A DNA stretch of 64,000 nucleotides, from positions 239 to 64,238 of the forward strand of contig CAZCDO010000001.1 of the NCBI GenBank assembly GCA_964497135.1, given 5' to 3'. The notes below the pieces were generated by a model. The model saw only the letters and a list, made by a program, of their open reading frames with translations. It was not told the origin of the DNA and ran no database searches. The DNA is from an uncultured Verrucomicrobiota bacterium. Its GTDB lineage: Bacteria; Verrucomicrobiota; Kiritimatiellia; CAIKKV01; CAIJXV01. Below, one piece after another: positions 2,034 through 50,783 of the stretch (position 1 is its first letter; each line of letters opens with the position of its first letter). Position numbers and translations under genes: made by a program.

Positions 2034-4514
2034 ATGACAGCATCCACCCGTATCACTCAGGTTATGGAACCGGTTCTACCGGACACCTGCGCGGTTTTGA
2101 CCGTTGCCGGCGCGGATGAGCGGACCCGGCTCTATGCCTTTCCGCTCGCCGATCAGCGCCCCGGGCTTCCCGGAGATGCGCTGGCACCGGACGTAAACCC
2201 TTTTGCGGTGCGGATCCTCCAACGCAGTGGCGAATGCCTGACCGTGGCCATGCCCCGGCGCCCGGAACACGCCTGGGCCTTTCAGACCGCTCCCGACTAT
2301 CTTCCGGATGAAGCTTGGATCGTTAACCGTCCGCGGTTGGACTGGCATTGGGGATATCGCTGCAATCCCGGCGGGGACCTGGTACTGCTCGGTCGCAATT
2401 TGGTTGCAGCGCACCATTATCCGCGCCCGGATCGGGAGCATCCGGTGAGTTTCGGCGGTTTGCTGACGGGAAAGACCAAAGTCGTTGCGCGTCGGAAAGG
2501 GACCCAGCGCTTCATTCCGCTTAAGGCCACGATCTCCAGCGCTTATGAAGCGCATATCGTCCTGCCGGCGGACCTGTTGCCGGGATCGTACGAGGTCTAC
2601 GCCCACAGTGGGATTGGAGGCGCCCTGGGTTGGTCGGATCCCCTGGAGATTGACATCAAGCCGGCGGAGGTGTGGCCGGATACCGTTTTCGAGGCGGACC
2701 GCTACATTAAAAAATGCCGCGGGGATATAGACGCGGGCATTGCCCTGGCGCTGACAGCCATGATCCGGAACAAGGGCGGAATCCTGCGATTTTCGGCCCG
2801 GGTTTACGGCATAGGGAAAACCATTGTCATGCCGCCGCGATCCGTCCTGCGCGGCGCCGGGAAAGATCGGACCCTGCTTCGCCTTCCCGCGGGGGAAGGC
2901 CCGAAACCGCCGTTTGTGGCGGTCACCGGAGACCGGGATTTCGCGGTGGAGGATTTGCGGATCATCGGCGTGCATGCGCCCACGTTGATCTGTGCGCCGC
3001 GTTTCGTCGCCGATACCTTTGACGAAGCCTTCCTCATGAAGCGGGTCTGGCATGAAGGCCGCGCCTCCGGCATCCGCATCAGCCGCTGTCATCTGGAGCA
3101 GATTCCCTTCATGCACGAAATGCGCCGGAAGGACAAGGCACATCTGGCCCGCCTGGCGAAAAGCCTGTACATGGGGCCCCAGGGGCTGGGCGTGGAGATG
3201 TATCAGGCCGTGATGATTCACGGCGACGACTGTCTGATCGAAGACAACACCATTATGGGCGGCGGACACGCGGTCTGCCTGGACCGGTCGCAGGGCGTTC
3301 GGGTCAGCGGCAATGTGCTCAAAGCCGGGCCGGCCGGCACGGCGCTCTTCTTTGCGAGCAAACTGACCTGGCCGGACGATCCCGCCCAAGGCGGCGCACC
3401 CATTCGCGGCAATTACTGCAACCGGGCCCTGGTGGATGGCAATGAGATCACCACCTATTCCGAGCGCGCCCGCAACCTCCTGAGTTTTATATTCGGGGGC
3501 GAACGCCTGCATGTCGCCCGCAACCACATTCACGGGATTCAGCCGACCAACGACGCGGAGGCGCTCCTGACGCACCTCTGGAGCGCGCGCTGGAGCTCCG
3601 CGTCATTGCGAATGACCGGCCCGGTTACCGGTGACATCGTGGATCCGAAAGGCGAACTCGCAAACGAGTGCCTCGAAGACGGCGCGGTGGACCTGGTCGG
3701 CGGGCGGGGGGTCGGGCAGATCCGGCGCATCCTGTCCCGCCAGGGGAACCGGATTGAAATTGAGCGCCCCTGGAAAGCGGACCCTGACGATACCAGCCAG
3801 GTGGTGTTTACCGCGCCCCTGCCGTTCTGCATGATCAACCTGGTGGACAACCGGATTGTTTCGCAGGCGGTGAATATCATCGTCTGGGGCGTTTCCAACG
3901 ATGTCATGATCGATGGTAATTATACGGCGGACGGTCCGGGGATTTCCGTCTGGTCCATCCGCCTGGCACCGGACCAGAAGGTCTGGGGTGGTGCCGGGTT
4001 CACGCAGATCATCAACAATACCGTGGATCGCGGCTGGTCCTTCTGTGAACCGGGCGACAGCCTGAAACTGGCCCGGGTCAACGGCATCTTTATGGTCGCC
4101 AGCAAATGGAAGTCCTCCGCCCCGGATCTCGGGTATGATTTCCTGGGGCTGGTGATCCGCGACAATCTATTGCTGAACCATGCCGGCATTTCCCTGCCGA
4201 TGACGTACGATTGCGAGGCGGCGGACGGACACCGCCAGCGCTGGCGCATTAATGAATCCGGACTGGTGGTGGAACGTAATCATCTTCGTGACTGCCACAT
4301 CGGGATTGCCGTGGAAGAGGGTGCCCGGGCCATTGTGCGCCGCAACACGTTCAAGAACGTCGTCTATCCGCTACTCCGGCCGGGCGGAAGGGGTTCCCTA
4401 CCTGGGGATGACCTGCACGGTCCTGACCCTGATGCTGGACGGTCTCTGCGCAAAATATTCGTTAAGTCTCCTTTCGGGCGACCAGTGAGAGTTCCGATTA
4501 TTGGGAGCGACTAA
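2034..4514 (+). CDS. pectate-lyase-fold (right-handed parallel beta-helix, Pectate_lyase_3-like) protein, putative polysaccharide-active enzyme
   Basis: 826-aa ORF. N-terminal region resembles the Pectate_lyase_3 entry motif (GDIDAGIALALTAMI...GGILRFSARVYGIGKTIVMPPRSVLRGAGKDRTLL) followed by repeated beta-helix turns (GNVLKAG, NHIHGIQ, VDNRIV). Tandem paralog fragment at 1..251. Confidence 0.6.
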   Translation: MTASTRITQVMEPVLPDTCAVLTVAGADERTRLYAFPLADQRPGLPGDALAPDVNPFAVRILQRSGECLTVAMPRRPEHAWAFQTAPDYLPDEAWIVNRPRLDWHWGYRCNPGGDLVLLGRNLVAAHHYPRPDREHPVSFGGLLTGKTKVVARRKGTQRFIPLKATISSAYEAHIVLPADLLPGSYEVYAHSGIGGALGWSDPLEIDIKPAEVWPDTVFEADRYIKKCRGDIDAGIALALTAMIRNKGGILRFSARVYGIGKTIVMPPRSVLRGAGKDRTLLRLPAGEGPKPPFVAVTGDRDFAVEDLRIIGVHAPTLICAPRFVADTFDEAFLMKRVWHEGRASGIRISRCHLEQIPFMHEMRRKDKAHLARLAKSLYMGPQGLGVEMYQAVMIHGDDCLIEDNTIMGGGHAVCLDRSQGVRVSGNVLKAGPAGTALFFASKLTWPDDPAQGGAPIRGNYCNRALVDGNEITTYSERARNLLSFIFGGERLHVARNHIHGIQPTNDAEALLTHLWSARWSSASLRMTGPVTGDIVDPKGELANECLEDGAVDLVGGRGVGQIRRILSRQGNRIEIERPWKADPDDTSQVVFTAPLPFCMINLVDNRIVSQAVNIIVWGVSNDVMIDGNYTADGPGISVWSIRLAPDQKVWGGAGFTQIINNTVDRGWSFCEPGDSLKLARVNGIFMVASKWKSSAPDLGYDFLGLVIRDNLLLNHAGISLPMTYDCEAADGHRQRWRINESGLVVERNHLRDCHIGIAVEEGARAIVRRNTFKNVVYPLLRPGGRGSLPGDDLHGPDPDAGRSLRKIFVKSPFGRPVRVPIIGSD

Positions 4515-4931
4515 GCAGGTCGACGAAGTGTAACCGCGTAAGTGTGGGACGAAGTGTTGGGAGAATGAGACACCAACAGCCAACATCCAATGGCCAACAG
4601 CCAACCCCCAACTTTTGGCCCTTCCTGATGTGGTCATTGAACGCTCAATGATTGACAGCGGAAGGGGAGCGACTAATGAGGCTTTGTAGAGGATTCGCGA
4701 TGTCGTAGGGCCTTCGCTCGTCGAAGGCCGGCTTGGAACAGGCGCGCCGACGAGCGGCGGCCCTACGGTTTGTGCGGGCATGCAACATCCGGGCTGGCAA
4801 CATCCCACTTGTGTTTTGGGTGCGGTTCGGGCACACTTTTTTTCGAAACCGATGATTTAACGGCATGGGGTGGGCCAGGGTTCCTGCCGCTGCAACCGCG
4901 ATTTTGGTGCTTTAAAATACAAGGAAAATCC

Positions 4932-7935: not shown

Positions 7936-9198
7936 ATGCAAAACGATACGGTCAAACTGGGAATTATCGGTCTGGGCAGGCGGACGGAAACATTGCTTGT
8001 TTCGCTTTTTGCCACACCGGGGATCGAAGTGGTGGCGATGTGCGACCTGTCCGACGCGGCGCTCGCCAAAATCCAGGGTATTTTCACCCGGAACGGACGT
8101 TTGCTGCCGACTCCCTTCAAAAACTACCGGGATCTGTTGGCGCGCGAGGACATTGCGGCGGTCCTGATTCCCACCTCCTGGAACTCGCACCTGCCGATCG
8201 CGGCCGACGCGCTGAAGGCCGGCAAATATGCCGCGATCGAAGTGGGGGGCGCCTCTTCCACCGAGGAGCTCTGGCAGTTGGTGCATGCCTCTGAGCAGAC
8301 CGGCACCCCCTGCATGATGCTCGAAAATTGCTGTTACGGCCGGAATGAACTCATGGTTCTCAACATGGTCCGCCAGGGGCTGTTCGGGGAACTGATCCAT
8401 TGCGAAGGCGGCTATGAGCACGAAATGCGCGAGGGCCTGGCGCTGAATGTGGAGCACGGTTTTGAACGGGCCATCCACAATCGGCATCGGAATGGCGACC
8501 TCTATCCGACTCATCAACTGGGACCCATCGCCAAAATCCTGGGCATCAACCGGGGCAACCGCTTTGTGAGTCTGACCTCCACCGCCTCGAAATCGCGGAG
8601 TCTGGGGCTCGCGGCCCAGGCCCATTACGGGCGCGGGACGCCCTATGGGGATCTCACCTTCAACAAGGGCGACGTGGTCACGACGGTCATCAAATGCGCT
8701 GGTGGCGAAACCATCACCTTGACGCACAGCGTATCGCTGCCCCGGCCCTATTCGCGCAATGGCCGGGTACAGGGCACCCGGGGCATCTGGCTGGAGGACG
8801 CCAAGGGCATCTTCATCGATGGCCTCAGCCCCACCATCGAGGAGATCGATCCCGCCGGCAACCCGTACACCATGCACCGCTGGGACCCCGTTGAAAGTTT
8901 TTACGCAAAATACGACCATCCCATCTGGCGGGACTACCACCATGCCATGATCGGTGGGCATGGCGGCATGGACTGGCTGGCGATCCAGGCCTTTCTTGAC
9001 GCGGTCCGCCATAAAATCGCCACGCCGATCGATGTGTATGACTGCGCGGCCTGGATGAGTGTGACCTGCCTGTCGGAACAGTCGATCGCGCTCGGGAGTA
9101 TGCCGGTGGCGTTTCCTGATTTCACCAACGGCAAATGGATGAACCGGGCGCCGGCACCGTCCAATAAATGGGCGCTCGACACCGTGCATGAGGGGTGA
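7936..9198 (+). CDS. Gfo/Idh/MocA-family NAD(P)-binding oxidoreductase (GH109-like fold possible)
   Basis: N-terminal Rossmann motif VKLGIIGLGRRTE. Size ~420 aa. Characteristic C-terminal alpha/beta domain. GAGGG RBS 8 nt upstream of ATG 7936. Confidence 0.7.
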   Translation: MQNDTVKLGIIGLGRRTETLLVSLFATPGIEVVAMCDLSDAALAKIQGIFTRNGRLLPTPFKNYRDLLAREDIAAVLIPTSWNSHLPIAADALKAGKYAAIEVGGASSTEELWQLVHASEQTGTPCMMLENCCYGRNELMVLNMVRQGLFGELIHCEGGYEHEMREGLALNVEHGFERAIHNRHRNGDLYPTHQLGPIAKILGINRGNRFVSLTSTASKSRSLGLAAQAHYGRGTPYGDLTFNKGDVVTTVIKCAGGETITLTHSVSLPRPYSRNGRVQGTRGIWLEDAKGIFIDGLSPTIEEIDPAGNPYTMHRWDPVESFYAKYDHPIWRDYHHAMIGGHGGMDWLAIQAFLDAVRHKIATPIDVYDCAAWMSVTCLSEQSIALGSMPVAFPDFTNGKWMNRAPAPSNKWALDTVHEG

Positions 9199-9220: not shown

Positions 9221-9502
9221 ATGACCCCTATCACGACCGGTCAGCGACTGAATGCTTGGGTGAAGCGCCATATCCGCAAGATTGAGATGACCGGGGTTCT
9301 GATGCGAATCTTTAGCTTCTCCCTGGTCAGTTGGCTAGGGCCCTCAAGTCCCTTCTTCTTCGTCTGGGCATTCAATACCACAGATGCGGTGATGCTCTCG
9401 TGGTGTTCATGCATCAAGAGAGATCCTGCTTACATTGTGTTGAATGTATTTTGGGTCGGAGTTGGAATCGTTGGGATGTCCCGTGCAGCGGGATGGTTCT
9501 GA
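9221..9502 (+). CDS. small hydrophobic (membrane) protein, weak resemblance to YgjV-family inner-membrane proteins; uncertain
   Basis: 93-aa ORF with GGAG RBS (ggagaaaacATG). Two to three hydrophobic segments. SWCSC motif. Lies in a low-GC island. Similarity to YgjV is recalled from memory only. Confidence 0.3.
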   Translation: MTPITTGQRLNAWVKRHIRKIEMTGVLMRIFSFSLVSWLGPSSPFFFVWAFNTTDAVMLSWCSCIKRDPAYIVLNVFWVGVGIVGMSRAAGWF

Positions 9503-9571: not shown

Positions 9572-9840
9572 CCCCTCACTCCGCAATCTCCGGGAGTCGG
9601 GCGGGGTGAGGGCACCCCCATACGTGTTAATCTAAGATCAAAAAACAACTCAAAGATTAAGCGATGCCGATTTTTCCCTCCCCCCGGCGAGGGGGAGGGT
9701 AGGGTGAGGGGGCTTGTATGTTTTCCAACCCCATTCGAATTTGTTGCACAACACCTTACAAATTATTCCGCGGATGATGCCCCCCCCTGATTATTAGGAT
9801 CCCCCTCACCCCTCCCTCCCCCGCGCCGGGGGGAGGGCGG
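9572..9840. repeat. three G/C-rich palindromic hairpin units (CCCTC(A)CCCC...GGGG(T)GAGGG-type) spaced ~110 bp apart
   Basis: Hairpin 1 is 9572-9612 (cccctcactccgc...gcggggtgaggg). Hairpin 2 is 9676-9699 (ccctccccccggcgagggggaggg). Hairpin 3 is ~9810-9840 (ccctccctcccccgcgccggggggagggcgg). Confidence 0.5.
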
Positions 9841-9921
9841 AACCCAACGCCGCCGCCAAAGTAAAGAGCGACAAACGGGAGCGTTTTCATAGTCTTAGCT
9901 TAATACGTATGAGGGCACCCC
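9608..9921. mobile_element. MITE-like non-autonomous element (~291 bp) with 17-bp imperfect terminal inverted repeats flanked by a perfect 11-bp direct repeat
   Basis: Left TIR ATACGTGTTAATCTAAG (9620-9636). Right TIR CTTAGCTTAATACGTAT (9894-9910), whose reverse complement ATACGTATTAAGCTAAG matches 15/17. Direct repeats GAGGGCACCCC at 9608-9618 and 9911-9921 (perfect). No ORF inside. The interior carries G/C hairpins 2 and 3. Confidence 0.5.
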
Positions 9922-9983
9922 GGCTCCAAGTTCATGAGGGGATTATTCATTGTTCCAAACACCTGCACGATTACATCTGGCAT

Positions 9984-10116
9984 CGACTAAGCGGTTGGAC
10001 TAAGCGTAACCGACAAAGTGTGGCGATGAAGTGTTGCTTCGCGCTATTCCAGGCCCATCCTCCAAACTCTTAGTCCCACACTTTGTCGGTTACGCTTAGT
10101 CGCCGCGCCTTAGTCA
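9984..10116. repeat. palindromic element built from GACTAAG heptamers with a perfect 26-bp inverted repeat core
   Basis: Left arm gactaagcggttggactaagcgtaaccgacaaagtgtgg (9984-10022). Right arm cttagtcccacactttgtcggttacgcttagtcgccgcgccttagtcag (10068-10116). Core GACTAAGCGTAACCGACAAAGTGTGG is perfectly inverted. GACTAAG occurs 5 times, at 9984+, 9997+, 10068-, 10094-, 10108-. A related half-copy lies at 4509-4560. Confidence 0.55.
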
Positions 10117-10348
10117 GATTGTCCATGCGGACCGGCTTGGCGCGCCGCGCGCGAAGACGGGCCGCATCTGCGGTTTTCCTCAGTGCCCCCGTGGCTCCGT
10201 GGTAAACCTGCCCCTGAGGATCCGGAGAACGAAGAGAATACCCCTCTGCAGGGATCCGTCTTCGTCCAAGCACTACGGCGGGACACGCGCGTCGGGCCAC
10301 CTCGGAAATCTACATCACCTGAATCGTTCCGGTTTACCGGCCTTCCAC

Positions 10349-10431
10349 CATGTCATAAAATGCATAGAAATATCAAAAAATGGACATGGCCAATAGCCGG
10401 CAAAAGAGGTATGATGATAATGGTATGGAAT
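10349..10431 (+). promoter_or_regulatory. conserved AT-rich upstream motif (copy A), candidate promoter/5' leader element of the giant gene
   Basis: catgtcataaaatgcatagaaatatcaaaaaatggacatggc (10349-10392) is ~88% identical to 50713-50755. Weaker similarity continues to ~10431. It lies ~90 nt upstream of ATG 10478. AAGGAG RBS at 10462-10467. Confidence 0.35.
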
Positions 10432-10477: not shown

Positions 10478-13400
10478 ATGAGACAGATCCGAGCCCTTTT
10501 CTTTGTCGTTCTCTTGTTTTGCGGCGGCCTGTCGGCCGGGGCCACGGACTTCAATTTGTGGGATAAGGCCATGCCGATCACCTTCAGCGGCTACAATCCG
10601 CCCGGCGGCGGAACGCTGACGAACTTCCCCGTCCTGGTGACGCTCAGAACGAACCTCGCAGGGTTCAGCTACACGGACTTCGCTTCGCCCACGAATGGCG
10701 CCGACCTTCGGTTTTCCGCCAGCAATCAGACGGACGAGCTGAACTTCGAAATCGAAAAGTGGGACACCAACGGCGCCTCTTATGTCTGGGTTCAAGTGCC
10801 CACCCTCTCCGGCACGAACACGAAGATCTGGGCCTACTGGGGCAATCCGCTCGCCCCTGTGGCGCCGAGTCAAACCAACGGGATGACCTGGTCCACCGAC
10901 TTCCGCGGTGTGTGGCACATGCAGGAGACCAATGTGGTGGACGCCACGACGAACGGGAATATCGGCGTCGGGAAAAATGGGATCATCACCACCAATACCG
11001 GTTTGGCCGGGAATGCGCTTTCACTCGTCGCGAATAGTTCCTCTACCAGCAGTAATTACGTAGACTTCGGCACCGGATTGGCGATGGGGACCGGCCATGC
11101 CACGTTGAGTATCTGGTTCAAGACGGCCACCAACGCGTTGCAAGCGGGAATCATCGGCAAGTCGGTATATGCCAGTGCCGAACGGTATTCCCTGAGTGGC
11201 GCCAAATCACCGAACATCATCAATGCGGTTTTTCAGTCCACGAACCCCCCCGCATTAACGGCGATGACGAACACGGCTTGGGCGAGTGGGTACTACGATA
11301 ACCAATGGCATCAGTTGACCGCCACGTTCAACCGGTCGGGGAATATGACCCTCTACGTGGATGGCGCGCAGAAGAGCGCCACCAACATCAGTCCGGCTTC
11401 CAGCGCCAATCTGAACAACCCGACTCGGTTTCTGATTGGTGCCTACGGGAACGCGACGGGGACCGGGCCGCAGACTGACTACTATTTTCCGGGTTCACTC
11501 GACGAAGGCCGCCTGATGCGGGTCCCGGCGTCCTCGAACTGGGTCTGGGCCGCCTGGATGAACGCCGCGTCGAATGGGGCGTTCAACGCTTACGGCGCCG
11601 CCGAGTCCCAAGGCCTGACGGTTCGGGTGTCGGGCGCGACAGGAGTGGGCGCGACCACCGCCACGCTGAACGGAACAGTGGCCAACAACGCCGGCGACCC
11701 GGCAACGGAGGCCTTCTTCTGCTGGGATTACACGAACAAGGGCACGGCGACGACGGCGGACTGGGCCCACGTGGAATACGCGGGGAACTCTTTTACCAAC
11801 GGCCAGACCTTCCTCACGGCGATCAACGGCCTGCTTTCGGGCAGTACCTATGTCTATCGCTGTTACGCGACCAACTCGACCGGGTCGGCCTGGTCGGGAG
11901 ACGCGACGAATTTTCGCACGCTGTATGTGCCGTCGGTGACCCTTAACAGTGCGGAGATTCTTAACCTGACAACGGTTTTGTTTCAGGGTGCGGTCACGGA
12001 AACCGGCGGCGAAACTCCGAATGTGTGGTTCTTGTACTGGCTGGACGGAGACACTTTGACCAACGCGGTCGACGTCGGAGCGGTGACGGGGGCCTGCAGT
12101 GCGCAGGTCACCGGCTTGATGACGGCTTCGAACTATGGGTGCCGGGTCATGGCGTCCAACTCGGCCGGCATCGCGTATTCCGGAACGACTGGCTTTCAGA
12201 TGGCCTGGCCCAAGGACTTCGGGTCGATCCCCATCACCTTGAGCGGGTATAACAGATCGGAAGTCCTGACGAATTTCCCGGTTCTGATTGCCCTCAGCAC
12301 GAATCTCGAAGGATTCAGTTATTCGGCCTTCTCTTCGCCTGCGAATGGCGCGGATCTGCGGTTCACGGCCAGCAATCAGCTTGACGCGATTAACTTCGAG
12401 ATCGAAAAATGGGACACCAACGGCACCTCCTATGTGTGGGTCCAAGTGCCTTTGCTCGCCGGCACGAACACGCGAGTCTGGGCGCTCTGGGGCAACCCGA
12501 GCGCCGGCGTACCGGCGTGTCAGACCAATGGGGCGACCTGGTCCAACGGTTATGTGGCGGTCTGGCATCTGGGCGAGTCAACCCCCACGAATCGCGACTC
12601 GACGATAAACCGTAATGACGGCACCAATTTCGGCAACACCACCGTCACTTCATTCGGACGAATCGGGTCAGCCAAGTCCTTCGACGGCGCGGGCGATGGC
12701 GTGGACTGCGGTACGCCCGCGAGTCTGGATGTCGCGCTACCGCGCACCATCTCAGCCTGGATCAAACCGGCGGTACTGAATGCCAAGGCCGGCGTGGTGG
12801 GGAAGGACTCGCAAAGGGATGGGACCGGTTACTCATACCTCATGTGTATCACCAACGGCGCTCTGATGGCTTACGATAACGTCACCTGGCGGGTGTCCTC
12901 GAACGCAAGCATTGCTATCGGGAACTGGTATCATGTGGTGTACGAAACACGCGGCGACGGCAGGATACAATACTATGTCAATGGGCAGAGCGCCGGAACC
13001 TCCATCTGGAATCATACGGATACCGCTGCCCATAACATCTACATCGGCAGTTGGTACAAGATGGCGACGACCTTTGATTTCAACGGTGTGATCGATGAGG
13101 TGAACCTGTCGAGTGTGGCGCGCGGATCCAACTGGGTCTGGGCAAGTTGGGCCAACCAAGTGACGAACTCCACGTTTACCGCCTACGGTTCGGCGCAAAA
13201 CGTGCTGGGCCTTCAATCCCTGCCCGCGACCGCCATCGGGGTTACGAATGCCACGTTAAACGGCATCCTGCTGAACGACCCTGTATCGCTCAACACCGAG
13301 ATCGCCTTCTGCTGGGGACCTGCCGACGCCGGTCAAGGCGCTACGAGCGATTGGCCGAATGTCGTCTCCCTGGGATCGGGATGGAGCCAGGGGGATTCAT

Positions 13401-16400
13401 TCAGCAACACACTCGCCAGCCTGCTCTCCGGCAGTACCTACGTCTATCGCTGTTACGCGACGAATGCGGGTGTGGTGGTGGGGCCGGTCTGGTCGGCCGC
13501 GCAGAGTTTCACCACCGTCTATCGTCCGTCCGTGACGAACCTGGGACCGGTGAACGGTTACGCCACCACCTGGTTGCGGGGGCAGGTGACGGATACCGGC
13601 CTCGAAACACCCTCTGTCTGGTTCTATTGGTGGGCGAATGGCAGTGCGACGACCAACATCGTTCCGATGGGACAGCCGGTGGGCGCCTTCTCGAACGCCG
13701 TCACCGGGCTCGCTCCCTATACGAATTATCAATACAGCATCCTGGCGTCCAATCTTGCGGGCGGAACGTGGTCGTCCGTCTCCAACTTCCAGACGCTCAT
13801 CACCTTTGCCGTCGTCACGAACGGAGGGGCTCAGCCGCTGACCCCGTCGATTGAATTCCTGCAGGGCGGGGTGACCAACACCGGCGGGGACACGCCGCAA
13901 GTCTGGTTCCTCTACTGGATCGCCGGTGGTGCCACGACCAATGCGTATGGGGTGGGCGCCCAGACCGGCGCGTGCAGCGCCACGGTCTCGGGTTTACTGC
14001 CCGGCTCCAACTACGTTTTCATGCTGATGGCGTCTAATCTGGCTGGCGCCGCCTACTCCGGAACCGCCGCATTCCAGACCACGTCGGAAACCATCTATTT
14101 CGTCGCCACCAACGGCAATAACAGTTGGGATGGTCTCACTTGGGGCACCGCCGTGAGCAACGTCGAAGTCGGCGTCCAACGCGCCAGTTTGTGTACCGGT
14201 ACCGTTGTCGTCGGTGACGGCTCCTTCGCCATCACCTCGTTCTGGGTTCAGATTGCCAGCGCCATCACCGTCCGCAGTCTCAATGGGCCGAACTCCACCA
14301 CTCTCAGGGCGGTCGGGACAAGCAGCACCTATCGGCGGGTCATGCTGGTGAGCAACGCGAATGCCTTCGTCTCCGGCTTTACGATGACGGACGGAAACCT
14401 GGGGAACAATAACGGGGAAGGGGGGGGCCCGGGGGGGCTGCGGCTCGTCGCGGGCACCGTGTCTAACTGCGTCATCCACGGCAATTTTGGGTCGGACAAT
14501 TCCGGCGGGATCGACATGAAAGGCGGGCTTCTCACCCACTGTACGGTATCGAGCAACCAGGCCATTCGGGCCAATAACCCGGGCTATGGCACCGGTGGAG
14601 GCATCACGCTGTCCGGTGGAACGGTTCAGTTCTGCGTCATCAGCAACAATTACGCCCGAAAGACGGGAAGCGGGATCCGGCAGACGGGCGGAACGGTGCG
14701 AGACAGCCTGATTGTCCGCAACTACCATGTTTACTCGGACATTTCCACAGGGGTCGGGGTGCATCAGAGTGGCGGCACGCTGGAGCGCTGCGAGATCCGT
14801 TCCAACGCCGGCGCGTGGTTTGCCGGAGGACTTTACCTCGATGGAAACGGCTTGGCGCGGAACTGTCTCTTCGCGAACAACACCGCCCTGTATGACGGCG
14901 GCGGTGTTTATATGACGACCGGCCGGTTGATCAACGCCACGCTTGCCGGGAACCGGGCGGATATCAATGGCCCTGGGCTTTACATGACGGCGGGCTGGGT
15001 GAGCAACTCGGTCGTTTACGGGAACGGCTCCACGCGCTACGTGAACCTCGCGAGCAATGTTTTCAAGAGCGGCGGCACGTTTGCCTACGGCTGCGCCACG
15101 CCCCTGGTCGCCGGCACGGACAACGTGGCGGTCGACCCGCTCTTCGTGAATGCCGCGGCAGGCGACTACCGGCTCTCCGTGGGATCGCCCTGCATCGATA
15201 CCGGCGCCAACCTGGCTGATGTCACGAACGATCTCCTGCGCGCCGCCCGGCCTCAGGACGGCAATGGGGATGGTTCCTCGGTGACCGATCGGGGCGCCTA
15301 TGAAGCCGGACCGTTGAGCGGCGGGCCTTTCACCTGTAGTTTCGATGTCGCGCCGGAGGAAGGCTATCTCTCGGTGAACGCGACCTTCACCGCCTTTGTC
15401 GGAGGTCCGAACACCAACATCACCTGGTACGGCTGGGACTTTGAGAACGACGGGATCATTGATGACGCGGGGGCGGACAAGCGCGTGACGACCCACACGT
15501 TCGGGGTGGGGTACTACGACGTGTCCCTCACGGTCAGCAACTCGGACAGCGCGGCCACCAGCGTTGTGCGCCTGGCCTGCGTTCGCGTGGCGCCGTCGAC
15601 CAATTATGTGTGGAAGTCCGGCTCGCACACGGCGCCGTTCGATACTTGGGCCAAGGCCGCCCGGGATATCCAGAGTGCGGTGGATGTGGCCTGGTCCTCG
15701 GATTCCACGCCGGCGACGGTGCTGGTCACGAATGGCGTTTACACCAACACCAGCCAAATCGCCATCACGCGGCCCCTGATCGTCCGCAGTGTGAATGGTC
15801 CGACGGTTACCACCGTAAATCTCGGTAACGTGGACGGTCGGCGCGCCTTCCAAGTTGCGAACTCGAATGCCTGGCTGGAGGGATTCACCGCTACGGGCGG
15901 CAAGATCGGAAACAATTCAGATGGCGGCGCGGGCATTCTGCTGGACCGCGGGACGGTGACGAATTGCATCGCCACCGGGTGTTCCTCCATCAGGTGCGGG
16001 GCCGGGATATGGGTCAAGAGTGGGCTGCTGGTCAAGTGCCGGATCTTCGGGAACACGACGTTGGCGCAAAACAGCGAGGCTCCGGGCTTGTACCTTACGG
16101 GTGGCACGGCGCGGGACTGCGATAGCGTCAGCAACAATGTTCCCGGCAATAATGTTATCGGGGGTGGGGTTTACATGACCGGTGGCACGTTGGAACGCTG
16201 CCGCGTCAGCTGGAATACCGCTGGAAACGTCAGCCGCGCGGGCGGGACCGGCGGCGGCATCTTCATGACCGGCGGCACGGCGGTTGACAGCTACATCATC
16301 GGCAACACGCAGTATGGCAACGGGGGCGGGGTCTACATGACCGGTGGCACGCTCCGCAACTGCCTGGTGGTGAGCAATACCTCGCCCGCGAACAATGGAG

Positions 16401-18265
16401 GCGGCATTTATATGGCCGGCTCCGCCGCGCAGGTGGAGAACTGCACCGTGGCCGATAACAGCGCCCTCCTCAATGGCAATGGTCTTTACCAGGCATCTGG
16501 CGGGGTGACCAACACCGTCATTTTCTTTAACACCGCCGTGCCCAACGTTTACCAGACCGGCGGCAGTATTGGGTTCTCGAGCATGGATCCGGTGGTGACG
16601 GGTGCGGGCAATACGAATAATTTGAGTGCGGATCCGTTCTTTGTCGATGGTTATCGCCTCGGGCCGGGTTCGCTTTGTATTGACGGCGGAACCAACCTTC
16701 CCTGGTCGGAGACGGGCAAGGACCTGGCGGGCAGTAACCGGGTGGTGAACGATATTGTGGATATGGGCGCCTTCGAGAAGCCCGCCGCGGGCGCGGGTGA
16801 CCCGCTCGGATGCAATTTCGATGCGGTTCCGGTCTCGGGATCCCTCACGCTGACGCCCACCTTCACCGCGCTCTTGTCGGGCGGGAACACGAACACCGAG
16901 TGGTTTCGGTGGGACTACGGCGATGGCGTGACCGAACAGAGCGCCACTCTTGGCACGACGTCGCACACCTATGGTCCCGGCTGGTACACCGTGACCCTCA
17001 CCGTTCGGAATACCGACAGCGCCGAGACGTCAGCCGTCCGCACCGCCTACATCAAGGTGGCTCCGGCGACGAACTATGTGGCCAAGGGCGCCTCGAATGT
17101 TCCGCCCTACCTGACGTGGGCGACGGCTGCCTCCAACGTGGAAGACGCGGTTGACGCCGCGCCCCTGACCGTCTTGGTTTCCAACGGAACATTCAACAGT
17201 ACGAGAACCGTTATGGTGGAACGGGATATGACGATTCGGAGCCTGAATGGGCCGGCCGCTACGGTCATCAATGCCGGCAATGTGTCCTTCCGGCGCGTAT
17301 TCCAGGTCTCTGCCACGAATGCCTGGATCGAGGGCTTCACCCTCTATGGGGGGTCGTACGGAAGCTACTCCGATGGCGGGGCGGGGGTTCTGCTGGAGAA
17401 TGGGACGGTGACGAACTGCTGGATCACCTCCTGTGTGAACTACCAAAACGGCGCGGGAGCCTGGGTCAAGAACGGACTGCTCGTCGGGTGCCGGGTGTAT
17501 GGCAACAACTCCGGTGCGAATCAGGGGGAATCGGTCGGCGTCTATCTGACGGGGGGAACGGTGCGTGACTGTGTGATCGTCAGCAACGGCTTCACGAGTA
17601 GCGGGCACATGCTCGGGGCCGGGGTGTACCAGACCAGCGGTTATTTGGAGCGTTGCCGGGTGGAGGGCAATATGGGTGGAAATGTCGGCAATACCAACAG
17701 CGCCGGCGGCGGCATCTATCTGGAGGGCGGACTCGCGACGGACTGCATTATCGCCAAAAACACGACCTACGGTAACGGGGGGGGCGTCTATCTCGTCGGC
17801 GGTGTGTTACGCAATTCCCTGGTGCTGACCAATCGGGCGGCCCTGCACAACGCCGGTGGCCTTTATGTGGGGGCGGGGCGCGCCGAGAACTGCACGGTGG
17901 TGAGCAATACGGCCCTAGGCGTCGGGAATGGACTCTATCTGGCGGGGGGCGGAGTGACCAATACCATCGTGTACTTCAACGGGGCGATCAATGTTCACCG
18001 GATCGGCGGCAGTATCGCCTACTCGTGTATGACACCGCTGGTGACCGGCGCCGAAAACACGGATGCCGATCCCCAGTTCAAGGCCGCCGCGTTGGGCGAC
18101 TACCATTTGGCCGGCGACTCCCCTTGCATCAACGCCGGAACCAATCTGTCATGGTCAGCTTCCGGAACCGATTTGGACGGTCTGAAGCGGATGTATAGCG
18201 GGCGGGTGGATATGGGGGTTTTTGAATCGCTCCCCACCGCCGGTACGATTTTTACCATTCGATAA
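10478..18265 (+). CDS. giant secreted modular surface protein (2595 aa): [DUF2341 - LamG/concanavalin-like - FN3-like x2] x2, then [right-handed beta-helix - PKD] x2
   Basis: Signal peptide MRQIRALFFVVLLFCGGLSAGA. DUF2341-type motif (GADLRF.ASNQ.D..NFEIEKWDTNG.SYVWVQVP) occurs twice, at aa ~55-130 and ~600-680. LamG-like modules (GSLDEGRL / IDEVNLS). YVYRCYATN FN3-like repeats. Gly-rich beta-helix turns (GGGVYMTGGTL). Two PKD domains (WYGWDFENDG...VSLTVSN / WFRWDYGDG...VTLTVRN). Confidence 0.75.
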   Translation: MRQIRALFFVVLLFCGGLSAGATDFNLWDKAMPITFSGYNPPGGGTLTNFPVLVTLRTNLAGFSYTDFASPTNGADLRFSASNQTDELNFEIEKWDTNGASYVWVQVPTLSGTNTKIWAYWGNPLAPVAPSQTNGMTWSTDFRGVWHMQETNVVDATTNGNIGVGKNGIITTNTGLAGNALSLVANSSSTSSNYVDFGTGLAMGTGHATLSIWFKTATNALQAGIIGKSVYASAERYSLSGAKSPNIINAVFQSTNPPALTAMTNTAWASGYYDNQWHQLTATFNRSGNMTLYVDGAQKSATNISPASSANLNNPTRFLIGAYGNATGTGPQTDYYFPGSLDEGRLMRVPASSNWVWAAWMNAASNGAFNAYGAAESQGLTVRVSGATGVGATTATLNGTVANNAGDPATEAFFCWDYTNKGTATTADWAHVEYAGNSFTNGQTFLTAINGLLSGSTYVYRCYATNSTGSAWSGDATNFRTLYVPSVTLNSAEILNLTTVLFQGAVTETGGETPNVWFLYWLDGDTLTNAVDVGAVTGACSAQVTGLMTASNYGCRVMASNSAGIAYSGTTGFQMAWPKDFGSIPITLSGYNRSEVLTNFPVLIALSTNLEGFSYSAFSSPANGADLRFTASNQLDAINFEIEKWDTNGTSYVWVQVPLLAGTNTRVWALWGNPSAGVPACQTNGATWSNGYVAVWHLGESTPTNRDSTINRNDGTNFGNTTVTSFGRIGSAKSFDGAGDGVDCGTPASLDVALPRTISAWIKPAVLNAKAGVVGKDSQRDGTGYSYLMCITNGALMAYDNVTWRVSSNASIAIGNWYHVVYETRGDGRIQYYVNGQSAGTSIWNHTDTAAHNIYIGSWYKMATTFDFNGVIDEVNLSSVARGSNWVWASWANQVTNSTFTAYGSAQNVLGLQSLPATAIGVTNATLNGILLNDPVSLNTEIAFCWGPADAGQGATSDWPNVVSLGSGWSQGDSFSNTLASLLSGSTYVYRCYATNAGVVVGPVWSAAQSFTTVYRPSVTNLGPVNGYATTWLRGQVTDTGLETPSVWFYWWANGSATTNIVPMGQPVGAFSNAVTGLAPYTNYQYSILASNLAGGTWSSVSNFQTLITFAVVTNGGAQPLTPSIEFLQGGVTNTGGDTPQVWFLYWIAGGATTNAYGVGAQTGACSATVSGLLPGSNYVFMLMASNLAGAAYSGTAAFQTTSETIYFVATNGNNSWDGLTWGTAVSNVEVGVQRASLCTGTVVVGDGSFAITSFWVQIASAITVRSLNGPNSTTLRAVGTSSTYRRVMLVSNANAFVSGFTMTDGNLGNNNGEGGGPGGLRLVAGTVSNCVIHGNFGSDNSGGIDMKGGLLTHCTVSSNQAIRANNPGYGTGGGITLSGGTVQFCVISNNYARKTGSGIRQTGGTVRDSLIVRNYHVYSDISTGVGVHQSGGTLERCEIRSNAGAWFAGGLYLDGNGLARNCLFANNTALYDGGGVYMTTGRLINATLAGNRADINGPGLYMTAGWVSNSVVYGNGSTRYVNLASNVFKSGGTFAYGCATPLVAGTDNVAVDPLFVNAAAGDYRLSVGSPCIDTGANLADVTNDLLRAARPQDGNGDGSSVTDRGAYEAGPLSGGPFTCSFDVAPEEGYLSVNATFTAFVGGPNTNITWYGWDFENDGIIDDAGADKRVTTHTFGVGYYDVSLTVSNSDSAATSVVRLACVRVAPSTNYVWKSGSHTAPFDTWAKAARDIQSAVDVAWSSDSTPATVLVTNGVYTNTSQIAITRPLIVRSVNGPTVTTVNLGNVDGRRAFQVANSNAWLEGFTATGGKIGNNSDGGAGILLDRGTVTNCIATGCSSIRCGAGIWVKSGLLVKCRIFGNTTLAQNSEAPGLYLTGGTARDCDSVSNNVPGNNVIGGGVYMTGGTLERCRVSWNTAGNVSRAGGTGGGIFMTGGTAVDSYIIGNTQYGNGGGVYMTGGTLRNCLVVSNTSPANNGGGIYMAGSAAQVENCTVADNSALLNGNGLYQASGGVTNTVIFFNTAVPNVYQTGGSIGFSSMDPVVTGAGNTNNLSADPFFVDGYRLGPGSLCIDGGTNLPWSETGKDLAGSNRVVNDIVDMGAFEKPAAGAGDPLGCNFDAVPVSGSLTLTPTFTALLSGGNTNTEWFRWDYGDGVTEQSATLGTTSHTYGPGWYTVTLTVRNTDSAETSAVRTAYIKVAPATNYVAKGASNVPPYLTWATAASNVEDAVDAAPLTVLVSNGTFNSTRTVMVERDMTIRSLNGPAATVINAGNVSFRRVFQVSATNAWIEGFTLYGGSYGSYSDGGAGVLLENGTVTNCWITSCVNYQNGAGAWVKNGLLVGCRVYGNNSGANQGESVGVYLTGGTVRDCVIVSNGFTSSGHMLGAGVYQTSGYLERCRVEGNMGGNVGNTNSAGGGIYLEGGLATDCIIAKNTTYGNGGGVYLVGGVLRNSLVLTNRAALHNAGGLYVGAGRAENCTVVSNTALGVGNGLYLAGGGVTNTIVYFNGAINVHRIGGSIAYSCMTPLVTGAENTDADPQFKAAALGDYHLAGDSPCINAGTNLSWSASGTDLDGLKRMYSGRVDMGVFESLPTAGTIFTIR

Positions 18266-50687: not shown

Positions 50688-50712
50688 TGAGCCGATCATG
50701 CGGTATGCCTGC

Positions 50713-50783
50713 CATGTCAAAAAATGCACTGAAATATCAAAAAAGGGACATAGCGAGAGGTTTGTAATGAGTGTATCATAGAC
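50713..50783 (+). promoter_or_regulatory. conserved AT-rich motif (copy B) paralogous to 10349-10431
   Basis: catgtcaaaaaatgcactgaaatatcaaaaaagggacatagc, ~88% identical to copy A over ~44 nt. Lies upstream of a decayed ORF fragment. Confidence 0.3.

Follow-up and report, generated by a model that had tools for sequence, protein, structure and literature searches.

A 293-bp transposase-less element with IS231-like ends, probably a MITE, in a REP-like repeat of an uncultured Verrucomicrobiota bacterium

What is the short segment that stands between a small gene and a giant one in the genome of an uncultured Verrucomicrobiota bacterium, and how did it come to be there? The window analysed here, a stretch of 64,000 nucleotides with 61% G+C, carries it in a 975-bp intergenic region, downstream of a gene for a GH109-type oxidoreductase (7936-9198) and of a 93-aa ORF (9221-9502) and upstream of a gene for a 2595-aa protein with DUF2341, LamG and PKD domains (10478-18265). 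From the letters alone, an earlier note had read it as a transposed non-autonomous element with 17-bp terminal inverted repeats (TIRs) and a perfect 11-bp target-site duplication. The core of this reading was borne out: the TIR is the terminus of a real IS4-family insertion sequence (IS) and of short derivatives, the duplication has a length that fits the family, and the empty site occurs in 33 places. We consider it likely, at a probability of about 85%, that 9619-9911 is a miniature element (MITE) that retains nothing of an IS4-family IS but its two ends, and whose ends, duplication and target preference resemble those of the IS231 subgroup. Elements of this kind are ordinary; this one is newly seen in an uncultured bacterium.

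The inverted and direct repeats are present where they had been reported. Read directly in the sequence, ATACGTGTTAATCTAAG (9620-9636) can pair with CTTAGCTTAATACGTAT (9894-9910) at 15 of 17 positions, and GAGGGCACCCC occurs at both 9608-9618 and 9911-9921. The exact boundaries, however, had to be moved. In genomes that share the terminus, the base before ATACGT is a C in 48 of 52 non-redundant flanks, which gives the terminus consensus CATACGTGTTAAGCTAAGA (seen in L005-L033). Therefore, the termini lie at C9619 and G9911, the TIRs are 19 nt long with 17 of 19 positions matching and with termini CAT...ATG, and the element measures 293 bp instead of about 291 bp (Table 1). The 11-mers had been said to flank the TIRs immediately, but C9619, the first base of the element, lies between the left 11-mer and the 17-mer. 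The bounds of the direct repeat shift as well: a repeat finder extends it to the 12 nt TGAGGGCACCCC (9607-9618 and 9910-9921), whereas the copy that adjoins both termini exactly is the 10-mer AGGGCACCCC. The 11th and 12th identical bases (G, T) coincide with the terminal TG of the element, and because the identity of the direct repeat overlaps the last bases of the element, the duplication length reads as 10-12 bp.

Table 1. Features of the window element and its target site, and short elements bounded by the same TIR in other genomes
Feature	Position or locus	Strand	Details
Whole non-autonomous element (MITE, probable)	9619..9911	.	293 bp, CATACGT to ACGTATG
Left TIR CATACGTGTTAATCTAAGA	9619..9637	+	1 mismatch to family consensus CATACGTGTTAAGCTAAGA
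Right TIR, reverse complement CATACGTATTAAGCTAAGA	9893..9911	-	1 mismatch to family consensus CATACGTGTTAAGCTAAGA
Left target-site duplication copy AGGGCACCCC	9609..9618	.	identity reaches back to 9607 (TGAGGGCACCCC)
Right target-site duplication copy AGGGCACCCC	9912..9921	.	identity begins at 9910
Internal inverted-repeat arm 1: hairpin CCCTCCCCCC-GGCG-AGGGGGAGGG, then TAGGGTGAGGGGG	9676..9712	+	92% complementary to 9801-9837
Internal inverted-repeat arm 2: CCCCCTCACCCC and hairpin TCCCTCCCCC-GCGCC-GGGGGGAGGG	9801..9837	+	repeat finder
Left part of interrupted host repeat (REP-like GC-rich palindrome)	9573..9618	+	hairpin GGGGTG-AGGG-CACCCC at 9603-9618
Right part of interrupted host repeat GGCTCCAAG	9922..9930	+	empty-site reconstruction
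Short TIR-to-TIR element	L008		100 bp, without transposase
Short TIR-to-TIR element	L026		130 bp, without transposase
Short TIR-to-TIR element	L031		191 bp, without transposase
Short TIR-to-TIR elements	L020, L022, L029		213-215 bp, without transposase; three different sites of one MAG
Short TIR-to-TIR element	L014		316 bp, without transposase
Short TIR-to-TIR element	L017		354 bp, without transposase

Could such an arrangement arise without any transposition? A mosaic of GC-rich REP-like palindromes might mimic both TIRs and direct repeat, and GGGCACCC is indeed nearly self-complementary, so that the inverted repeat seems to run into the direct repeat; moreover, the flanks are in fact part of a palindromic repeat. 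Yet the geometry itself speaks against such a mosaic. The window holds 31 inverted repeats of 17 nt (at most two mismatches, span 100-600 nt), and only the pair at 9619-9911, in three adjacent registers, has an exact abutting 10-nt direct repeat, while 10 Markov-1 simulations yielded 0-13 inverted repeats each and none flanked in this way. The 17-mer TIR, with up to three mismatches allowed, occurs twice in the window against an expectation of 0.01. The 11-mer GAGGGCACCCC is unremarkable by itself; it is the combination of TIRs and repeat that stands out, and this arrangement is real and far beyond chance. In addition, the A/T-rich 19-nt ends differ by no more than one base from those that bound, in other phyla, MITEs and an IS with a transposase gene, and excision of the element restores a junction that is present 33 times elsewhere. 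The termini in other genomes, the full-length IS and the rebuilt empty sites, all described below, effectively refute a chance palindrome, to which we assign a next to negligible probability.

Is the terminus found outside this genome? We scanned an 18-mer covering both ends (ATACGTRTTAAKCTAAGA) against one genome per species, a set to which the host genome does not belong, and retrieved 30 loci. Isolated single hits in unrelated genomes make up a few of these; most share the identical 18-mer. The terminus, nearly always with a C before it, is present at about 25 loci in at least six phyla, and several genomes have it on many contigs. A Desulfatirhabdium MAG has it on seven contigs, for the most part no more than ~50 nt from the contig end; it is also found on six contigs in two Candidatus Magnetobacterium genomes, on four in Brocadiaceae and Loosdrechtia, on three in one unclassified MAG, and in two Kiritimatiellota and two Chlamydiota. 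Its frequent position at contig ends is as expected of multi-copy repeats. The sequence that follows the 18-mer is conserved within a genome and not between genomes. On the outer side, the 52 family flanks have G or C from -13 to -9 and from -4 to -2, with mixed bases between the two blocks (SSSSS-NNNN-SSS), with both GGG..CCC and CCC..GGG forms represented. Neither the TIR nor the internal G-rich motif occurs in the viral contigs scanned, and a full-text literature search returned no paper with the TIR string. In the Desulfatirhabdium MAG, we also noted a locus (L028, 6013-6609) where the same 19-nt terminus is followed, at most 30 nt on, by an ORF for an IS5-family transposase (DUF4096 and DDE_Tnp_1; NF033580), not of IS4 type; either one insertion nested in another or an element unrelated to the family but with the same end may account for it.

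Full-length IS copies with matching TIRs had been anticipated by the earlier note, and one was recovered, though in another genome. In Candidatus Loosdrechtia (locus L013), two termini that differ from the window TIR by one base lie 1590 bp apart around a 440-aa ORF. This ORF matches Pfam DDE_Tnp_1, scores 203 bits against the NCBIfam model NF033592 'IS4 family transposase' (cut-off 115) and has the Y-2-R-3-E-6-K signature (YRLRWQIELIFKQLK). The IS is flanked by a duplication of 10-11 bp, GGGATGAAGGG, in the same geometry as in the window; further duplications measure 11 bp in L008, 10-11 bp in L017 and 10 bp in L069, and those of older family copies have decayed. In a large protein database, more than 600 relatives of the L013 transposase were found at E < 1e-20, nearly all on contigs of 1.4-4 kb, the usual fate of repeats in assemblies. 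Relatives with ~52% transposase identity to L013 have the ends CATAGGTGTTAAGCTAAGC, two bases off the consensus. In the full-length relatives L069-L075, the transposase gene is separated from the left end by a conserved DUF6788 ORF of ~110 aa (e.g. L071 157-492, L070 427-759), of which L013 has no called equivalent.

Which branch of the IS4 family does this IS resemble? The L013 transposase shares 29% full-length identity (E = 4e-45) with the Bacillus cereus 'insertion sequence element D', which is IS231D-like, and its full-length matches among PLSDB plasmids are overwhelmingly from Bacillus and annotated as IS231A, IS231C, IS231F, ISBce2 and ISBth5 (27-29% identity). The IS4 of E. coli and Shigella matches only partially (E = 3e-6). 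For the IS231 subgroup, the published end consensus is CAT-------AA--TAA---, and its direct repeats measure 10-12 bp (PMC2266710, Table 1). Both window ends fit this consensus at 8 of 8 defined positions, and the window duplication has the same 10-12 bp; the ends also satisfy the looser ISH8 and IS4Sa consensuses, so that the ends alone are not exclusive to IS231. The right end of the B. cereus IS231D-like element (CATGCCCATCAATCTAAGCT) shares 13 of 20 positions with the left end of the window element, among them AATCTAAG. For IS231A, a duplication of 11 bp and the target GGGNNNNNCCC are listed (PMC2577343, Table 1); the window 11-mer fits 5 of the 6 defined positions of this target, so that its G/C-rich symmetric site may be of a similar kind.

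The L013 transposase aligns end to end with the IS231A/C/D/F types and keeps YREK, but its identity to them is only 27-31%, and the placement in the subgroup, made by sequence comparison, is tentative. Other differences concern the hosts, which are environmental Planctomycetota, Nitrospirota, Desulfobacterota, Kiritimatiellota and Chlamydiota instead of Firmicutes, the TIR core, which is ACGTGTTAAGC in the window family versus GCCCATCAAC/T in IS231, and the extra DUF6788 ORF upstream of the transposase gene in some relatives. What seems to be an IS231-like clade within the IS4 family, MITEs included, is thereby on record from far beyond the Firmicutes, and its 19-nt terminus shows striking conservation over at least six phyla.

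The element has no transposase of its own, as had been supposed. No ORF longer than 44 aa and no Pfam domain was found in 9619-9911, and the L013 transposase has no tblastn match in the element or in the rest of the 64-kb window. The active cognate IS that the earlier note took to be implied in this genome therefore finds no backing in the window. Bacterial MITEs are commonly delimited as elements of less than ~600 bp without a transposase gene, and 293 bp falls well within this size. The nearest described counterpart with two IS231-type ends and no transposase is MIC231, which is non-autonomous and mobilised in trans by the IS231 transposase (PMC6199540). An A-rich stretch beside one window end (GATCAAAAAACAAC) loosely recalls the 'CA region' of MIC231, but MICs are 0.7-3 kb long and carry passenger genes. 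Since the window element has no credible ORF between its ends, it is a MITE and not a MIC; without a passenger gene in its 293 bp, a MIC231-type cassette was ruled out.

Did these 293 bp ever move as a small element? Alternatively, a full-length IS231-like IS may have inserted here, duplicated its target and then lost its transposase by internal deletion in situ. Such a remnant would leave identical ends and an identical duplication, and only a single copy of the element is known: self-BLAST of the intergenic region revealed no second copy in the 64-kb window, ~535 kb of fetched loci contain none beyond the terminal 19-28 nt, and a protein search with the spurious 44-aa ORF gave no match among called proteins. 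The interior, however, is symmetrical, with two 37-nt arms of 92% complementarity, a build characteristic of MITEs that the full-length IS of L013 does not show. In addition, an analogous hairpin module recurs in MITEs that have this TIR and are demonstrably multi-copy in another genome (L020, L022, L029). We therefore regard a remnant formed in place as unlikely, albeit worth keeping in mind, and retain the mobile MITE as our reading.

This hairpin module, which corresponds to window positions 9674-9712, is found in L020, L022, L029 and L026 and reads TT-C-run-loop-G-run-T(T)AGGG-G-run, with its mirror image at the opposite end of the element. It occurs in three unrelated lineages, namely in the window, in MAG BQF270218_bin_21 and in Candidatus Magnetobacterium, and nowhere else in the ~535 kb of fetched loci, as judged by a search pattern written post hoc from these examples. 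One may speculate that the element belongs to a functional, horizontally spread MITE lineage and is no random deletion derivative, with the module mimicking the GGG-N-CCC target of the family or serving as a binding site for transposase or a host factor or as a cruciform site; we hold this to be rather improbable.

The two G/C-rich hairpins inside the element had also been proposed as terminators or structured RNA. Along these lines, the segment could be an RNA gene (an sRNA) or a terminator pair for the 93-aa gene, to which the repeats would be incidental: it is intergenic, lies downstream of a gene and is predicted to fold as a single long hairpin (z = -6.5 versus shuffles). This fold, though, is explained by the build of a MITE as an inverted repeat. 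The hairpins are not canonical terminators because no U-tract follows them: neither has a T-run after it on either strand, and the T5 run at 9671-9675 precedes the first hairpin. Also, no terminator-like or promoter-like site is located inside 9619-9911 on either strand, and the promoter-like sites of the giant gene lie 420-500 nt further downstream. At gathering thresholds no Rfam family matched the element, and permissive thresholds returned only generic miRNA-precursor hairpin models far below the cut-off. Neither proposal for the hairpins was thus upheld, and we consider an RNA gene or terminator pair very improbable.

If the element is a transposed MITE, what did its target look like before the insertion? 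We rebuilt the empty site by deleting 9619-9921, i.e. the element and one repeat copy, which yields an allele carrying CAATCTCCGGGAGTCGGGCGGGGTGAGGGCACCCCGGCTCCAAGTTCATGAGG, and searched the 25-mer across the junction, GGGGTGAGGGCACCCCGGCTCCAAG, in JGI metagenome contigs. The window as it stands lacks this 25-mer, its best match having three mismatches. In the metagenomes, the junction is exact and uninterrupted in 33 loci (L035-L067), on contigs of 49-67% G+C, with ~20 copies from one sample. The model of insertion and duplication predicts exactly this uninterrupted sequence, and the 33 loci are paralogous empty sites. In these loci, the 25-mer is one arm of a palindromic repeat (CTTGGAGCCGGGGTGCCCTCACCCCGG, ~22 nt, CCGGGGTGAGGGCACCCCGGCTCCAAG), usually followed by a small GCCCCGCAGCGGGGC hairpin; each arm is itself a hairpin. 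The unit in the window is partly degenerate, with the element lodged in its right arm. None of the 33 REP-like loci holds a TIR-bearing element. The repeat has no Rfam match, and its string was found in no paper in a full-text literature search.

The empty target sites called for in the earlier note thus exist as paralogues, while the nearest relatives provided no orthologous one. These relatives, identified by the GH109 gene (84%, 82% and 81% amino-acid identity), have different neighbours; synteny with the window is already lost, and the orthologous site is missing for this reason. In the window, the left duplication copy still completes the hairpin GGGGTG-AGGG-CACCCC, and the structure 3' of the 93-aa gene is therefore preserved.

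By analogy with IS231, MIC231 and the IS4 family (PMC6199540, PMC2266710), we propose that a full-length copy elsewhere would provide the DDE transposase, which would act in trans and bind the two CATACGTGTTAAGCTAAGA-type ends. The element would then be excised by cut-and-paste and inserted at staggered cuts ~10-11 bp apart, about one helical turn, in a G/C-rich and roughly palindromic target, where repair of the stagger would create the direct repeat. The target here was the loop and 3' stem of the hairpin mentioned above, within the REP-like repeat between the 93-aa gene and the giant LamG/PKD gene. Both the mobilisation in trans and the cut-and-paste chemistry are presumed from these relatives.

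Is this preference for a palindromic repeat peculiar to the element? REP-targeting ISs such as IS1397 and ISKpn1 are known from the BIMEs of enterobacteria; they are members of the IS3 or IS110 families, with specific REP loops as their recognition sites. The window insertion resembles theirs in that it lies inside a GC-rich extragenic palindromic repeat. In contrast, it appears to follow the broader GGG-N-CCC preference of IS231, a pattern that any GC-rich hairpin offers by nature. The clade thus appears to prefer GC-rich palindromes and, by extension, to land in REP-like hairpins.

A contig from another metagenome (L001) matches the window collinearly with 99.87% identity and carries the element with 100% identity. 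In a third sample, the locus is split, with contigs that end and start mid-element, at window positions 9779 and 9774, which fits a failure of the assembler at a GC-rich palindrome with a C8 run. Two variants of the giant gene (P0268, P0267) added no new upstream sequence except for a contig starting inside the MITE. The insertion is present in all three samples and no polymorphism was seen, which gives no evidence of current mobility; most likely, it is now a neutral, fixed passenger. For the annotation of this MAG, the MITE accounts for a 293-bp intergenic hairpin and for the assembly break within it, and the surrounding intergenic region is to be flagged as built from repeats. Concepts of how such elements work are left as they are.

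Several observations concern the neighbourhood of the element. Exact-protein look-ups of the 93-aa ORF and of a 309-aa ORF retrieved nothing on record, probably due to the choice of start codon. Two independent Logan contigs (L002, L003) both end at window position 9288, inside the 93-aa ORF, and this shared stop suggests strain variation nearby. Nine of the ten differences between the window and L001 fall into two clusters: four in the 3' part of the 93-aa ORF (9382-9446) and five within 18 nt (10034-10051), in the loop of a second palindrome. An inversion was tested as the cause of the five loop differences and rejected.

The second palindrome (9984-10102) lies 70 nt downstream of the MITE and consists of perfect 26-nt arms (9998-10023 and 10076-10101) around a 52-nt loop, with repeated GACTAAGCG motifs. 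A relative of it (CGACTAAGC.GGTCGAC.AAG.GTAACCG...) is located at 4509-4567, upstream of a heparinase-like gene, and another at 2806-2855 of L036; it may be a regulatory site or a further repeat family. Finally, a 40-nt A/T-rich motif, CCATGTCA.AAAATGCA..GAAATATCAAAAAA.GGACAT, occurs at 10348-10387 and at 50712-50751 with 90% identity. The former copy overlaps promoter-like sites ~100 nt upstream of the giant LamG/PKD gene, and the motif may represent a shared promoter or operator.
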